Positions 6,640 through 37,975 of a stretch of 64,000 nucleotides of DNA are shown here, piece by piece. The notes under the pieces are model-generated. The model did no database searches. It saw only the letters and a program-made list of their open reading frames with translations, and was not told the DNA's origin. The position numbers and the translations under genes are program-made. This DNA comes from an uncultured Opitutales bacterium (GTDB lineage Bacteria; Verrucomicrobiota; Verrucomicrobiia; Opitutales; Intestinicryptomonadaceae), in contig URJJ01000004.1 of NCBI GenBank assembly GCA_900548185.1, forward strand, positions 2,130 through 66,129, read 5' to 3'. Position 1 is the first letter of the stretch; every line of letters starts with the position of its first letter.

Positions 6640-6980
6640 GCAAACCTCGCCACGGTAGAGTTTGCAACGCACCCGGACTATCCCTTCCGTCCCTAGGCAG
6701 ACGGTGTCCGCGCCGCGCGAAAAATATGACGCTCAAACTTCTTTTCAAAGCCCTTGCAAGTCCGTTGCAGAGGCTCTTTTTTTAATCCGGCGTGCGCGAT
6801 TGCGGGCTGGGCGCAAAACTCGAAGCTGGATGAAAAACATTTACAAATCTTACTTCATTTGAGGGTGTCGGCGCAAAAAGTTTCCGGAGTCAAATCCTGC
6901 TGCCAAATTTGCCCCAACGTCTTTAATTTCCCATTGTCCCCCGGCATTTCCAGTTTCAAATCCAATCTTTCAAACATCAT
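6640..6980 (+). repeat. Copy 1 of an AT-rich ~340 bp dispersed intergenic repeat (second copy at 37633-37975, same orientation); possible ncRNA or MITE
   Basis: Direct alignment by eye with 37633-37975 gives about 80% identity with small indels. The element begins with the hairpin ttgcaaacctcgccacggtagagtttgcaa. It is AT-rich relative to the flanking sequence. Confidence 0.6.
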
Positions 6981-7182
6981 TGGATTTGAAGCGCTCAGGC
7001 TGTCCGCGCGAATCGGGAGCTTCCGCCCTCTTAAAGCCATGTATGGCCGCCGCACTTTGCGGATGGGGTGGGATAACGCGGCCGCCTGCCTTTTGCGCGC
7101 GCCGGCATGTTTTTTCAAAGGCAAATTTTGGCGGCGCGCTTGTAAAACCAAAGCTGCGCCTTGCTCTGCCGCCGCATCGCGG

Positions 7183-8131: not shown

Positions 8132-8208
8132 GCGCCCGTAGCTCAATTGGATAGAGCATCTGACTACGGATCAGAAGGTTACAGGTTCGACTCCTGTTGG
8201 GCGCGCCA
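8132..8208 (+). tRNA. tRNA-Arg (anticodon ACG)
   Basis: Manual cloverleaf. Acceptor GCGCCCG/TGGGCGC; D-arm GCTC-AATTGGATA-GAGC; anticodon stem TCTGA/TCAGA with loop CTACGGA (anticodon ACG); T-arm ACAGG-TTCGACT-CCTGT; encoded CCA. Confidence 0.9.
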
Positions 8209-8846: not shown

Positions 8847-9809
8847 GTGATTTACAAGGTCGGGACATGCTCGCCGTCGGATCCGGCGCTCAGGCTCGCC
8901 GTAGAAATAATACTCGGCGGGGGCATCGTCGCCGTGCCCACAGAAACCGTTTACGGCCTTGCCGCCAACGCCCTTGACGAAGCCGCGGTGCGGAAGGTGT
9001 TTCTCGCCAAGGGGCGCCCTTTCATAGATCCGCTCATCGCCCACGTCCCGGACTTTTCCGCGCTGGAAAAAATAGCGGTTCCAAACGGGAGCGCGCGGAG
9101 GCTCGCGGAGGCGTTCTGCCCGGGGCCGATAACATTCGTGCTTGAAAAGCGCGCGTGCGTGCCCGACGTGGTGAGCGCGGGCCGTCCCACAGTGGCTGTC
9201 CGCATCCCCTCCCACCCTGTAATGAGGGCTTTTATGGAAATGGCAGGCGTTCCGATTTCCGCCCCCAGCGCAAACCCGTTCGGGTATGTCAGCCCCACCC
9301 GCGCCGAGCATGTGGAGGCCCAGCTCGGCTCGAAGGTCGGCGCGGTGCTCGACGGCGGCCCGTGCGAATGCGGGGTGGAGTCCACCATAGTGATGCTTTC
9401 GGACGAGTCAAACCCGATGCTCCTGCGTCCGGGGCCGGTGCCGCGGAGCGAAATCGAACGAGTTCTCGGGCGCAGGCTGGCCGACCCGAAGGATAATAAT
9501 CCGGCCCATCCCCAGGCTCCGGGCATGTTGAAAACCCATTACAGCCCGCTGGCTTCGGTAGAGCTGTTTGACAAGCCCCGCAACTTCGGCGGCGGCTGCG
9601 CCGTAATTTACGCTTCTCGCCCGGCTTCTCCCGGTCCCGACGAATTCTGGCTCAGCGAATCCGGCGACGATGCGGAGGCGGCGCGCAACCTCTTTTCCCT
9701 GATGCGCGCCCTCGACGGAAAGTATTCTAAAATATTCTGTCAGCGTCTGGCTTCGGGAGCTTTGGCGGAAGCGGTAAACGACCGCCTCTCTCGCGCCGCA
9801 GCAAAGTAA
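8847..9809 (+). CDS. tsaC: L-threonylcarbamoyladenylate synthase (Sua5/YrdC family with C-terminal Sua5 domain)
   Basis: The YrdC motif VAVPTETVYGLAANA is present. A length of 320 aa is consistent with the Sua5-type two-domain form. Confidence 0.85.
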   Translation: MIYKVGTCSPSDPALRLAVEIILGGGIVAVPTETVYGLAANALDEAAVRKVFLAKGRPFIDPLIAHVPDFSALEKIAVPNGSARRLAEAFCPGPITFVLEKRACVPDVVSAGRPTVAVRIPSHPVMRAFMEMAGVPISAPSANPFGYVSPTRAEHVEAQLGSKVGAVLDGGPCECGVESTIVMLSDESNPMLLRPGPVPRSEIERVLGRRLADPKDNNPAHPQAPGMLKTHYSPLASVELFDKPRNFGGGCAVIYASRPASPGPDEFWLSESGDDAEAARNLFSLMRALDGKYSKIFCQRLASGALAEAVNDRLSRAAAK

Positions 9810-9810
9810 A

Positions 9811-9932
9811 CGTTCCGTTTAATCTAAGATGCTAACGCATCTTGGTACGGTGTGCGCCGCCGGGTCCGGGCGGCTATGGATTTATCTTACGCATTGCCTG
9901 GCGGCAATCGCTGGGTGGGTACAATCAGGAGT
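9811..9932 (+). repeat. Unit A of tandem structured intergenic repeat (candidate sRNA)
   Basis: Contains the perfect hairpin aagatgc-taac-gcatctt and a GC-rich segment gccgccgggtccgggcggc. It ends ...ggcaatcgctgggtgggtacaatcaggagt and is followed by agtcttttttt. About 90% identical to 10045-10140. Confidence 0.55.
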
Positions 9933-9989
9933 AAATTAGATAGTCTTTTTTTATAAGTAAGCGTTCCGCAAGCGTACCGTTTAACCTAA

Positions 9990-10140
9990 GATGCTAGCGC
10001 ACCAACGTACCGTTGGATCTAAGATGCTTGCGCATCTTGAAACGGTGTGCACCGCCCGGGTCCGGGCGGCTGTGGGTTTATCTTACGCATTGCCTGGCGG
10101 CAATCGCTGGGTGGGGGCAATCGGGAGTGTATGTTGGGGT
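9990..10140 (+). repeat. Unit B of tandem structured intergenic repeat (candidate sRNA) with duplicated leader hairpin
   Basis: It carries two copies of the ctaagatgcNNNNgcatctt hairpin motif followed by the same ~95 nt core as unit A. It is followed by agtctcttttttgt. Confidence 0.55.
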
Positions 10141-10430
10141 GGTCTAATTTGGAGTGAATTTGAAAGTCTCTTTTTTGTAAAAGGGCGTTTTATTTTTTCC
10201 AAAGCTTTGCGATGCGGTGTTGTGGCTATGCAGCTTCTCTTTCTGCGGGAATTTTAGTTGGCGGCGGAGTTGGGGGCGCATTTTTTCGCGGGACTTATGG
10301 GATGTTCGCAGAAAGTTGGCTTCCGACTGATTATTTTATTGCGCGGCGGCATCAGTCCTATTTCATGCTCTCTTGTATGGTATGCCGCTGATTTTCGGAG
10401 GCGTCTTTTCAATTTGAATACGGGAAAAAT

Positions 10431-11072
10431 ATGAAGTTTGCAGGAACGCTTTTGTGCGCGCTTTCGGGTGCGGCCATTTCATGCGCCGCTTTTGCGGCAG
10501 ATACGGTTGAGCTTTTCAACGGGAAGAATCTGGACGGCTGGACGCTCTTTGCCGACGGCGCCTCCGGCGGGGATGTGTTTTCCGCCAAAGACGGGATAAT
10601 ACGCGTCAAGGGGAAGCCGTTCGGGTACATGTTTACAAACGGCAAATATTCGGACTTCAGGCTCCATGTTGAATGGATGTATCCTGCCCAAAAGAGCAAC
10701 AGCGGCATATTCCTCTTTGTCCAGAATCCCCCCGCAATATGGCCGAACGCTGTCGAGTGCCAGCTCTGCGCCGACAGGGCGGGGGATTTTGTGCTTCTCG
10801 GCGGTTCAGACTTGGCCGAATACAAGGCTCCCGAAGGCGGCGCGCGCCCAGCGTTTCCGGTGGTTTCAAAGAGGGGGCCTTCAAACGAAAATCCCGTGGG
10901 CGAATGGAACAGCGCCGACATCATATGTAAAGACGGCTCTATCGAGGTCTTTATAAACGGGACTCTTCAAAACCGCGCCACTGGCTCCATGCATAAGAGC
11001 GGGCACATCGGCCTGCAAAGCGAGGGCGGGGAAATTCTCTTTAGAAACGTGCGCCTCACCCCGCTTGAATGA
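10431..11072 (+). CDS. Secreted DUF1080 (3-keto-disaccharide hydrolase / LamG-like jelly-roll) domain protein
   Basis: An N-terminal signal peptide is present. Motifs typical of DUF1080 are WTLFADG...FSAKDGIIRVKG, GHIGLQSEGGEILFRNVRL. Confidence 0.85.
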   Translation: MKFAGTLLCALSGAAISCAAFAADTVELFNGKNLDGWTLFADGASGGDVFSAKDGIIRVKGKPFGYMFTNGKYSDFRLHVEWMYPAQKSNSGIFLFVQNPPAIWPNAVECQLCADRAGDFVLLGGSDLAEYKAPEGGARPAFPVVSKRGPSNENPVGEWNSADIICKDGSIEVFINGTLQNRATGSMHKSGHIGLQSEGGEILFRNVRLTPLE

Positions 11073-11193
11073 TTGCGGCGCCCCGGGTGTCTCCGGGCGG
11101 CTCGCGCTTGTTTTGCGTTTGCGGATTTCCCCCCGTCTAGCCCGGCGCATGGGATTGCGCTTGCGGGCGCGGAAGTTCAGGCGGCTGGAAATA

Positions 11194-12132
11194 TCAAAAG
11201 ATTTTCCGGCGCGCGTGGCAGTAGGGCGCCTTGCCGTTTCTTTCATAGAAACGCTGGTGGCGTGCTTCGGCAGGGTGGAATTTCGCATCCGGAAGCACTT
11301 TTGTCGCCACGCTGAAGCCTCGGCTTTTGAGGCCGGCTATGATTTCCTCCGCGTCTTTCCTCTGTTCTGGGCTTCCTGCGAAAACCGCCGAGAGGTACTG
11401 CGGCCCTATGTCCGGCCCCTGCCCGTCGGTCTGGGTGAAGTCGTGAATCTCAAAAAAGGCCCTGAGGATGTCGGGGTATGAGGTTTTCGACTTGTCGAAT
11501 ATTATTTCAACCGCCTCCAGATGGCCGGTGTTTCCGGCGCAGACGCTGGCATAGGATGGGTTTTCCGTCCGTCCCCCGGCATATCCCGAGACGCAGGACA
11601 CCACTCCGGAGATTTTCCGCATAAGCTCCTCCACACCCCAAAAGCATCCGCCTGCGACTACCGCGCGCCCTAGGCTTTCTTCGGGGATGAATTTCATTGA
11701 GAGCGAATTTACACAGTGGCGCGTGTTTTTTGGGGTCATGCGCTCGCCTTCAAAAACGTGCCCCAGATGGGCGCCGCAGCGCGCGCAGGCGATTTCGGTG
11801 CGCACTCCGTCGGCGTCCGGAATCCGCGCGACGGCCCCCGGAACGGCGTCGTCGAAGGCGGGCCAGCCGCATCCGGAATCGAACTTGTCGGAGGACTTGT
11901 ACAGGGCGGAGCCGCATGACTTGCATGCGTAAATCCCGCTCCCAAAAAATTTGTCGTACTTGCCGCTGAACGGGGATTCGGTGGCTTTCCCAAACATTAC
12001 CGCCTTCTCTTGCGGCGTGAGGTTTTGCTCCATTGAAAAATCCCTTCCGTGCGCCGCGGCCGCGAAAACGGCCGATGCCGCAAGCGCCCGCGCCAGTTTT
12101 GCCGCGTGCATGCGTCTGCGCAAAATTCCCAT
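11194..12132 (-). CDS. msrBA: Bifunctional methionine sulfoxide reductase MsrB-MsrA fusion with signal peptide
   Basis: The N-terminal half has MsrB zinc/catalytic motifs (CKSCGSALY, CGWPAF, RCGAHLGHVF). The C-terminal half has the MsrA motif GGCFWG. There is an N-terminal hydrophobic signal sequence. Confidence 0.9.
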   Translation of the reverse strand: MGILRRRMHAAKLARALAASAVFAAAAHGRDFSMEQNLTPQEKAVMFGKATESPFSGKYDKFFGSGIYACKSCGSALYKSSDKFDSGCGWPAFDDAVPGAVARIPDADGVRTEIACARCGAHLGHVFEGERMTPKNTRHCVNSLSMKFIPEESLGRAVVAGGCFWGVEELMRKISGVVSCVSGYAGGRTENPSYASVCAGNTGHLEAVEIIFDKSKTSYPDILRAFFEIHDFTQTDGQGPDIGPQYLSAVFAGSPEQRKDAEEIIAGLKSRGFSVATKVLPDAKFHPAEARHQRFYERNGKAPYCHARRKIF

Positions 12133-12162
12133 TCCGGGGGAATCGTAATTTTTTTGCGCCGG

Positions 12163-12990
12163 TTAAAGGGGGGCGTTAGGCGGGCGCCATCCCGAGGCGG
12201 CCAGCCTGCGCATTATTTTCATCATTATCGCCAGCGTGAGGAAGGGGTATATTATGATTCCAAGCTGAGACACTCCGAAGAACGTGAATTCGAGCGCAAA
12301 CATCATCGCAGCCGGGGTCGAGGCTATCAGCGCAATTTTGAAAGCCCCGAAGAGTCCCAGCCCCGGAAGGAGGGTGGCCCCCATTATGCGGGCCGAAAAC
12401 AGGGCAATCAGCACCAGCAGCGCGTCGAAGAAAAACGACACCCCGAAGCATATCGCAGGCAGCATTGTGTAGGCGGCCGCCATTATCTCCCGCTCTATGA
12501 AGCTGCGGGCCGATTCCGGATTTATCTTTATTGGAGCATCCGCTGCCCCGGATTCGGGCAGGCCCCGGTAGGCCATATATCTGGATGCGAGGTCCCGGTA
12601 GAATACGTACTGCTCGGCATCGCCCATTATTATGGCGAGCCTGTCCTTTTCCATTGCAAACATCAGGCCGCGCGTCTGTGCGGGCTCCAAAAAGGACGGC
12701 GTCATGGCCATGAAGTTTTCGCCGTCTTTGAACTTTATGAATACGGGTTTATCCGACTTCATCTTCAGCGTTCCGCCGGATATTTCGGCGTCCGGTATCT
12801 GCGACGCCACATAGTCCTTCTGGGAGGCTGCGAATGAGAGGAAGGCGGGCAGCATGAAGGCGGACGACAGGGCTGTCGAAATGGCGCAGAGAAATAGGAA
12901 ATAAATCGCGGCCTTCCACCGCCAGCCCTCTATGGCCGCCGCATAGTCTTCCGCGCTGTAAAGCGATTTCCAAAGCAGCCTGAACATCAT
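12163..12990 (-). CDS. Polytopic membrane protein of unknown function (DUF1189-like)
   Basis: 275 aa with multiple hydrophobic segments. It is translationally coupled to the downstream RluA-family gene (overlap of stop and start). The family assignment is tentative. Confidence 0.55.
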   Translation of the reverse strand: MMFRLLWKSLYSAEDYAAAIEGWRWKAAIYFLFLCAISTALSSAFMLPAFLSFAASQKDYVASQIPDAEISGGTLKMKSDKPVFIKFKDGENFMAMTPSFLEPAQTRGLMFAMEKDRLAIIMGDAEQYVFYRDLASRYMAYRGLPESGAADAPIKINPESARSFIEREIMAAAYTMLPAICFGVSFFFDALLVLIALFSARIMGATLLPGLGLFGAFKIALIASTPAAMMFALEFTFFGVSQLGIIIYPFLTLAIMMKIMRRLAASGWRPPNAPL

Positions 12991-37632: not shown

Positions 37633-37975
37633 GCAAACCTCGCTGCGGTAGAATTTGCAACGCACCCGGACAATCCCCCTTCCGCCCCTGCGCAGATGCT
37701 ATCCGCGCCGTGTAAAAAGGATGACACTGCAACTTCTTTTCAAAATTCCTGCAAGTCCGTTCCAGCGGCTCTTTTTTTTAACCCGGTGCGCGATTGCGAG
37801 TTGGGCGCAAAACTCGAAGCTGGATGAAAAACCTTCAGAAATCTTACTTCATTTTAGGAGGACAGCGCAAAAAGCTTCCAAACTCAAACCCTGTTGCCAA
37901 GTTTGCCCCAAACGCTTGAATTTCCCATTATTTCCCGGCATTGCCAGTTTCAAAATCCCATATTTTTAACATCAT
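37633..37975 (+). repeat. Copy 2 of AT-rich ~340 bp dispersed repeat (see 6640-6980)
   Basis: About 80% identity to copy 1 over its full length. It contains an intact 104-aa ORF (37655-37969) that is frameshifted in copy 1. Confidence 0.6.

Follow-up and report, generated by a model that had tools for sequence, protein, structure and literature searches.

The intergenic region downstream of the threonylcarbamoyl-AMP synthase gene (Sua5) carries two tandem copies of a hairpin-rich repeat. We assign it, with a probability of roughly 0.6, to a lineage-restricted, non-coding, modular family of intergenic repeats, whose structured units are carried as passengers in untranslated regions (UTRs). The two copies are unlikely to represent paired sRNA genes that are independent and conserved. 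The host is an uncultured Opitutales bacterium of the animal gut. The repeat-family assignment follows from the dispersal of the units, their occurrence in both orientations, the ragged arrays, the variation in sub-repeat number, the overlap with gene ends, the polymorphism between strains and the absence from orthologous loci. Below, the window denotes the whole 64-kb stretch of DNA that was analysed.

Two head-to-tail units begin at the Sua5 stop codon

Sua5/TsaC occupies 8847–9809 on the + strand and was identified by PF01300/PF03481 on the identical gene in L001 and by its database homologues, which come from Opitutales metagenome-assembled genomes (MAGs) and are named threonylcarbamoyl-AMP synthase. 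Its stop codon lies within the repeat. AAGTAA at 9804–9809, the last sense codon and stop of Sua5, opens unit 1 and recurs at 9955 as the opening of unit 2, and a 14-nt match (AAGTAAACGTTCCG and AAGTAAGCGTTCCG, at 9804 and 9955) marks both unit starts. Unit 1 spans 9804–9954 (151 nt, + strand; defined by nhmmer and a covariance model, 129.9 bits for 9804–9926, and by the unit alignment), and unit 2 follows it directly at 9955–~10180 (+ strand). The initial annotation had described two look-alike units; the pair is real, but the true limits are these and not the ones it gave. A repeat search aligned 9809–9864 with 10004–10059 at 84% identity and 9860–9932 with 10056–10128 at 93%, and identity over the 123-nt unit cores is 87%. 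The conserved core recognised earlier is likewise confirmed as 39 nucleotides (TTTATCTTACGCATTGCCTGGCGGCAATCGCTGGGTGGG) identical in both units, which occur exactly twice in the 64-kb window, at 9881–9919 and 10077–10115, against a chance expectation of 0. The array is in the sense orientation relative to both flanking genes; the downstream one, a DUF1080/3-keto-disaccharide hydrolase-like gene (10431–11072, + strand; PF06439), starts 250 nt beyond the array.

Unit 1 is a string of hairpins. P0 (TAAACG-TTC-CGTTTA, 9807–9821), delineated by RNAalifold and pair counts, is followed by P1 (ATC-T-AAGATGC-TAAC-GCATCTT-GGT, 9822–9846), whose stem is conserved and whose loop varies among copies. At the heart of P1 lies the perfect palindrome AAGATGC-N4-GCATCTT, found at 9826–9843 in unit 1 and at 10021–10038 in unit 2. 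Each unit thus holds the 7-bp palindrome as first described; the second copy attributed to unit 2 did not hold up, since 9988–10005 (AAGATGCTAGCGCACCAA), which lies in a truncated 33-nt sub-repeat, contains only the 5′ arm of the P1 palindrome. The GC-rich, stem-like segment noted in each unit corresponds to hairpin P2, at 9856–9874 in unit 1 (GCCGCC-GGGTCCG-GGCGGC) and at 10052–10071 in unit 2. P2 of unit 1 is one C short of all other copies, and the C is present in strain L024. The core of unit 1 (9877–9923, + strand) consists of an outer stem, P3, that encloses P4. P3 is rich in G·U pairs and joins 9877–9889 to 9912–9923 on the + strand only, and P4 (GC-ATTGCC-TGGC-GGCAAT-c-GC) fills 9891–9911. 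The unit closes with a 3′ module (9924–9954, + strand) made of a weak AU-rich hairpin remnant, a T7 tract (9946–9952) and the start of a linker, ATAAGTAA.

Unit 2 repeats this order with additions at both ends. Its extra 5′ module (9955–10003, + strand) comprises the AAGTAAG linker, an 11-nt duplication (GCGTTCCGCAA and GCGTACCG) and the truncated sub-repeat; its core, P0 to P4, runs from 9999 to 10122 on the + strand (132.1 bits with the covariance model); and its 3′ module (10123–10180, + strand) has an insertion or duplication of ~27 nt ahead of a T6 tract (10171–10176). The extra truncated sub-repeat and the insertion before the T-tract account for the greater length of unit 2. The T-tracts therefore do occupy equivalent positions in the two units, as had been proposed.

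The absence of a plausible coding frame, also noted at the outset, stands. An 88-aa ORF (9991–10257) overlaps unit 2, but the GC hairpins of the two units differ by a 1-nt indel that shifts the reading frame, from which we conclude that the repeat is non-coding. A protein-coding reading was rejected on this indel and because variation tracks stems and loops, not codons. Our search found no gene-caller ORFs in the + strand ATG frame of the unit. An 8-codon mini-ORF (ATG TTG GGG TGG TCT AAT TTG GAG TGA, 10131–10157) lies 4 nt past a GGGAG within the insertion that sets unit 2 apart; strain L024 shares this mini-ORF but other family members do not, and so it is probably due to chance.

Stems are conserved while loops vary

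We derived a consensus fold from an alignment of 15 full units taken from the window and from a second genome, ERZ1026946. Units in the family measure 150–230 nt, and their 5′ module holds a variable number of 10–33-nt sub-repeats (P0 and P1). In the consensus, P0 reads CCAACG-TNC-CGTTGG and P1 reads AUC-U-AAGAUGC-N4-GCAUCUU-GRU; P2 is GCCGCCCG-N4-CGGGCGGC; the G·U-rich outer stem P3 pairs UUUAUCUUA with UGGGUGGG, and inside it sits P4, GC-AUUGCC-N4-GGCAAU-c-GC. The 3′ module is variable, often GACAAUCAA...UUGAUAGUC, and leads into T6–7 and then the linker ATAAGTAAA.

Variation among the units follows this fold. Mean entropy is 0.20 in paired columns versus about 0.5 in unpaired ones (2.5 times less variation), and 70% of paired columns are invariant, versus 40–47% of unpaired columns. 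Pairing is retained in 97% of cells. Four pairs show double changes, a number matched by 23 of 500 shuffles, and the eight cells that carry double changes were reached in none of 500 shuffles. An alignment fitted to the covariance model yields 17 double-change pairs, a count biased towards the model since that alignment takes in weak and reverse-strand matches. In P0, three copies carry a compensatory variant in which CC..GG has become UA..UA (CG to UA and CG to AU, on both sides), and the one-sided changes in P3 (U-G/C-G/U-A) all retain pairing on the + strand.

Most of this architecture persists in a diverged solitary copy (L021 654–779, 67.6 bits) from a species whose Sua5 is 71% identical. 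There, P0, P1, P2 and P4 are kept with different stem sequences, except that the P4 sequence is unchanged; P3 is not kept, and P2 is followed by T6GT4. On the evidence of these sequences, then, hairpin formation is maintained, with conserved stems, variable loops and some compensatory changes. Together with the retention of hairpins in the diverged copy, this suggests that something selects for the hairpins, unlike what a purely neutral repeat would show, and in this respect it counts against the repeat-family reading.

Such a pattern is also what would be seen if each unit were an independent sRNA gene of ~140–190 nt that ends at its T-tract, in multi-copy arrays like those of NsiR1. The invariant P4 (CGCAUUGCC-N3/4-GGCAAUCGC) would then be a putative protein-binding site, or a seed or target-RNA site. 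The conserved stems with their compensatory changes, the pairing of P3 on the + strand through successive changes, and the diverged copy, with its hairpins and its T-tract after P2, all speak for this explanation. Against it, the complementary strand folds nearly as well (consensus energies −45.5 kcal/mol for the + strand vs −42.6 kcal/mol for the − strand, which uses an alternative outer helix). P0, P1, P2 and P4 are near-perfect palindromes with variable centres of 3–4 nt, and their strand symmetry is reflected in the near-equal consensus energy of the reverse strand. The strand is marked by the T-tract and P3 only, and a strand call from the G·U pairs was not decisive, the reverse strand having its alternative outer helix at similar energy.

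The palindromes open a further explanation, at the level of DNA. By analogy with REP/RAYT systems or with PATE elements derived from IS200/IS605, they might act as single-stranded DNA hairpins or as duplex sites for a transposase, a recombinase or a DNA-binding protein, and recognition by such a protein would explain both the spread of the family and the conservation of its stems. The equal folding of both strands agrees with this, as does the preservation in the diverged copy of the P4 sequence itself, beyond its pairing. Since both strands are predicted to fold about equally, folding does not separate an RNA role from a DNA role, and the upkeep of the hairpins fits three candidate causes without favouring any of them: an RNA function on the + strand (within UTRs or as free sRNAs), recognition of DNA hairpins by a mobilising protein, or conversion among intact copies.

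Units are dispersed and arrayed in a sister genome

We scanned metagenome assemblies with a degenerate core pattern and resolved the units by nhmmer and covariance model R1. Five contigs of a single assembly, ERZ1026946, matched the core pattern at a coverage of 34–40x. Some 17 units or fragments of units lie in this sister genome, arrayed in runs of 2–6 at no fewer than five unrelated intergenic sites. The array on L008 has five units and a partial unit and lies in a convergent region; that on L009 has two units and a degenerate partial unit and is antisense to both flanking genes; L010 carries one unit and a partial unit at the contig end, in sense with its flanking genes; L011 carries three units, the last truncated, in a divergent region; and L012 carries three units antisense to both flanking genes. 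The neighbours of these arrays are mutually unrelated (a lipoprotein-like gene, two GH43 genes, DUF167, rpmI-rplT and a Sel1-like gene), and the loci share no orthologous genes with the window locus.

The window itself has a single repeat locus in its 64 kb. This counts against the repeat-family reading and is the one observation in favour of a local accident, namely a one-off tandem duplication of the Sua5–DUF1080 spacer with neither a wider family nor a function. Units at five other loci in another genome refute that explanation, as do the diverged copy, which belongs to a third genome, and the traces that other assemblies contain, and we give it almost no credence. The check for a genome-wide repeat suggested at the outset showed multi-copy dispersal in ERZ1026946.

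Window units are 86.6% identical to those of ERZ1026946, and the latter are 86.5% identical among themselves. Within one array identity reaches 89%, vs 86% between arrays, a slight excess that fits local duplication or conversion. The ends of the arrays are ragged: partial units terminate L008, L009 and L011, each cut at a different internal point. The repeat also intrudes into genes, supplying the last five codons and the stop of the DUF167 gene and, on L012, covering the likely start of the divergent lipoprotein-like gene. Reading frame is not conserved, and the number of sub-repeats varies. Taken together, the many unrelated sites, either orientation, variable sub-repeats and strain polymorphism (below) are those of a dispersed mosaic repeat. 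We propose that unequal recombination between units, or slippage between them, may increase their number locally and that gene conversion may homogenise them.

Further members surfaced as database entries. When several reading frames of the unit were joined into one query, it brought up two ‘proteins’, P0137 (162 aa) and P0138 (194 aa), that are antisense translations of additional arrays. We interpret both as gene-calling artefacts, which place the family in further NCBI and ENA assemblies as well. An exact 30-mer of the core had 0 matches among the GTDB species representatives, and a Sua5-based locus search of the same set returned distant relatives only (at most 56% identity), all of them without the element. 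The core had no match in viral contigs, and blastn found none in phage and plasmid collections. Seven viral matches to the 21-nt P1 palindrome were set aside as chance, as the model aligned over the 21–25-nt palindrome only.

These surveys bear on the explanation at the DNA level. The dispersal of the family in either orientation would follow naturally from mobilisation. However, no mobile-element, transposase or recombinase gene adjoins any array examined, the element ends have no partial matches elsewhere in the ~300 kb searched, and nothing similar occurs in the phage, plasmid or viral collections. The units stand in direct order and lack both terminal inverted repeats and defined termini, and the array ends are cut at different internal points. 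On balance we regard a DNA-level element as quite improbable. The same arrays also present a counterpoint to the repeat-family reading, in that no mobilising enzyme was found for those examined, nor any target-site duplication or fixed ends.

More familiar classes fit less well. A miniature inverted-repeat element (MITE) was rejected because the unit has no terminal inverted repeats (5′ AAGTAAACGTTCCG and 3′ GATAGTCTTTTTTTAT are not inverted copies), has internal palindromes only and varies at its ends. REP/BIME elements were set aside because the units are at least 150 nt long and in direct order, and a CRISPR array or type III toxin–antitoxin RNA array because the units abut without unique spacers and the neighbours are Sua5, DUF1080, GH43, DUF167 and L35.

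The array is a recent arrival at the Sua5 locus

At 97.8% identity, the locus recurs in the NCBI MAG GCA_037229245.1. Comparison of the window with strain L024 (97.8% identity over 8.2 kb) shows that the two-unit architecture is retained. The two diverge by 6.1% in the array, 8.4% in the adjacent unique intergenic DNA and about 2.2% over the whole 8.2 kb, so that divergence of the array between strains is about equal to that of neighbouring non-coding DNA, a point against sRNA genes. Most differences in the array lie in loops or leave pairing intact, whereas three break stems (P0 and P4 in unit 2). Several differences span more than one base and look, from their sequence, like conversion from other copies. 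The strains are polymorphic in other ways too: L040 has a chimeric unit, and in L023 the first 5′ module is a different one.

Beyond the species, no repeat copy was detected downstream of Sua5 in the relatives examined (64–74% Sua5 identity); the next gene, or the contig end, follows 0–166 nt past Sua5. The absence of the repeat from these loci indicates that the array is a recent arrival at the window site. In L017, which has the same gene order, a 102-nt spacer without the element separates Sua5 from DUF1080. A riboswitch or 5′ leader of DUF1080 was rejected on this spacer and on the unrelated neighbours of the other arrays.

The initial annotation had stated that many dispersed copies would point to a REP- or MITE-type element, and that a lack of conservation in related genomes would argue against a functional sRNA. 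Judged by these terms, the dispersal and the missing orthologous copies point towards the former and away from the latter.

The wider interval between Sua5 and DUF1189 (window 9810–12990, compared with L013, L016, L018 and L017) is a hot spot of rearrangement: a convergent DUF1189 gene directly abuts the Sua5 stop in several relatives, in L017 DUF1080 is inserted between them, and in the lineage of the window the interval holds the repeat array, DUF1080 and a fused MsrB-MsrA gene. In L015 (5629–6416, GCA_017526045.1), compared with the near-identical L014, DUF1189 is split into a 127-aa fragment and a 93-aa ORF on the opposite strand, which probably reflects a frameshift or assembly error in GCA_017526045.1.

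Many short-read contigs end inside the array. Many Logan contigs of the species start at the tRNA-Arg gene (ACG anticodon, 8132–8208), 438–445 nt upstream of S18, and run from there to the repeat array, which implies that the tRNA sequence is an assembly-breaking repeat too. Another repeat, unrelated to the first, ~345 nt long and apparently without coding capacity, is present at 6640–6985 and 37633–37975 on the same strand with ~83–86% identity; one copy precedes the ferritin/S18 region, and tRNA-Cys lies ~570 nt away from the other. This repeat contains a hairpin-like GCAGAGGCTC followed by T7–8 and has no Rfam match.

Terminators, promoters and RNA families

The proposal that prompted this work, two tandem sRNA genes each with its own terminator, fared poorly when transcription signals were considered. 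At the gathering score, Rfam 15 identified two tRNAs in the window and nothing in the array; relaxing the threshold to E ≤ 10 for 9700–10500, the covariance-model check called for at the outset, gave no match either, and the L008 array and the L021 copy gave sub-threshold chance matches only. A site scan found no terminator-like site in the window array. The sequence before the T-tract of unit 1 folds at −1.5 kcal/mol (z +1.1, worse than shuffled), and that before the T-tract of unit 2 at −11.5 kcal/mol (z −0.67, no better than shuffles). The sole terminator-like site of the intergenic region, AGTTGGCTTCCGACT followed by GATTATTTTA, is at 10314–10337, outside the repeat and ~100 nt upstream of the DUF1080 start.

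Elsewhere in the family, the picture is mixed. Most internal units in the two genomes compared retain the T-tract at the unit end, and 2 of ~15 units (L008 a and c) have a strong canonical terminator (−17 and −22 kcal/mol, z −3.2 and −4.8), created by an insertion and sited exactly at that T-tract. Both points favour sRNA arrays, as might the arrays antisense to their neighbours (L009 and L012), which would need a promoter of their own to make + strand RNA. However, we found no sigma-70-type promoter site in the window or in five other arrays, neither in any linker nor before the first units (although the sigma-70 consensus may not fit Opitutales), and the sequences upstream of the first units are unrelated, with nothing in common. 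In most units, both window units included, the hairpin at the T-tract is no better than shuffled sequence. Adding the truncated units and ragged array ends, the absence from orthologous loci of the relatives examined and the polymorphism within the species, we consider it unlikely that the units are sRNA genes. A dedicated terminator of upstream genes was rejected because two arrays are antisense to both neighbours.

Under the repeat-family reading, the window array is most likely carried as the 3′ UTR of Sua5, as no terminator precedes the array, which starts at the Sua5 stop. In that position its hairpins could do no more than stabilise the end of the mRNA or limit read-through to DUF1080.

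Discussion

The family is new and belongs to the known class of dispersed intergenic repeats, although a head-to-tail, multi-hairpin unit of 150–230 nt is somewhat unusual. One close likeness is to BOX of Streptococcus pneumoniae, which has the structure boxA-boxB(n)-boxC, and to the enterobacterial ERIC/IRU repeats; both BOX and ERIC usually occur as single elements. Like these, the family is non-coding, about 100–200 nt in scale, hairpin-rich and modular, with a variable number of internal sub-modules; it is dispersed in either orientation, lineage-restricted, sometimes overlaps gene ends and has no known mobilising enzyme. By contrast, it arrays whole units head-to-tail (2–6), shares no sequence similarity with BOX or ERIC and has no terminal inverted repeat.

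The arrangement in direct head-to-tail repeats at multiple intergenic loci is shared with the mycobacterial interspersed repetitive units (MIRU), which measure 40–100 bp and are usually oriented with their operon, and with the staphylococcal STAR elements, which are short GC-rich repeats with spacers. Both also vary between strains in copy number or architecture and abut or overlap neighbouring stop and start codons. Here, however, the unit is 150–230 nt long, is built from four or five hairpins and is found in either orientation. REPs are single palindromes of 20–40 nt with a GTAG head, typically in inverted pairs and associated with RAYT transposases. The family resembles REP/BIME elements as a set of short, GC-rich, multi-copy intergenic palindromes that possibly act on mRNA 3′ ends, and differs from them in lacking both the inverted pairs and the single palindrome with a GTAG head; nor did a RAYT gene turn up beside the arrays examined.

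Among tandem sRNAs, each NsiR1 repeat of Nostoc has a defined promoter as well as a Rho-independent terminator, and the repeats sit at one conserved locus; PrrF1/2, OmrA/B and AbcR1/2 are tandem sRNA pairs. The likeness lies in the head-to-tail arrangement of repeats that are predicted to fold one by one and that have a U-tract at their end. Unlike NsiR1, the family described here has no promoter that we could find and mostly terminators that are not credible, and it occupies many unrelated loci, of which that in the window is not conserved.

A literature search turned up no structured, tandem-arraying repeat family of this description in Verrucomicrobiota, and we know of none; nor, to our knowledge, has a multi-copy sRNA family of ~150 nt such as this been described there. 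The repeat has practical consequences: it breaks short-read assemblies of these gut Opitutales and yields spurious protein predictions such as P0137 and P0138. It also remodels gene ends, as in the stop codon of Sua5 and the C-terminus of the DUF167 protein. Should the units prove to function as RNA, they would constitute an unusual multi-copy sRNA system, in which the expansion and contraction of arrays would tune copy number in gut Opitutales; otherwise, the repeat would be an ordinary selfish or neutral feature of these genomes.
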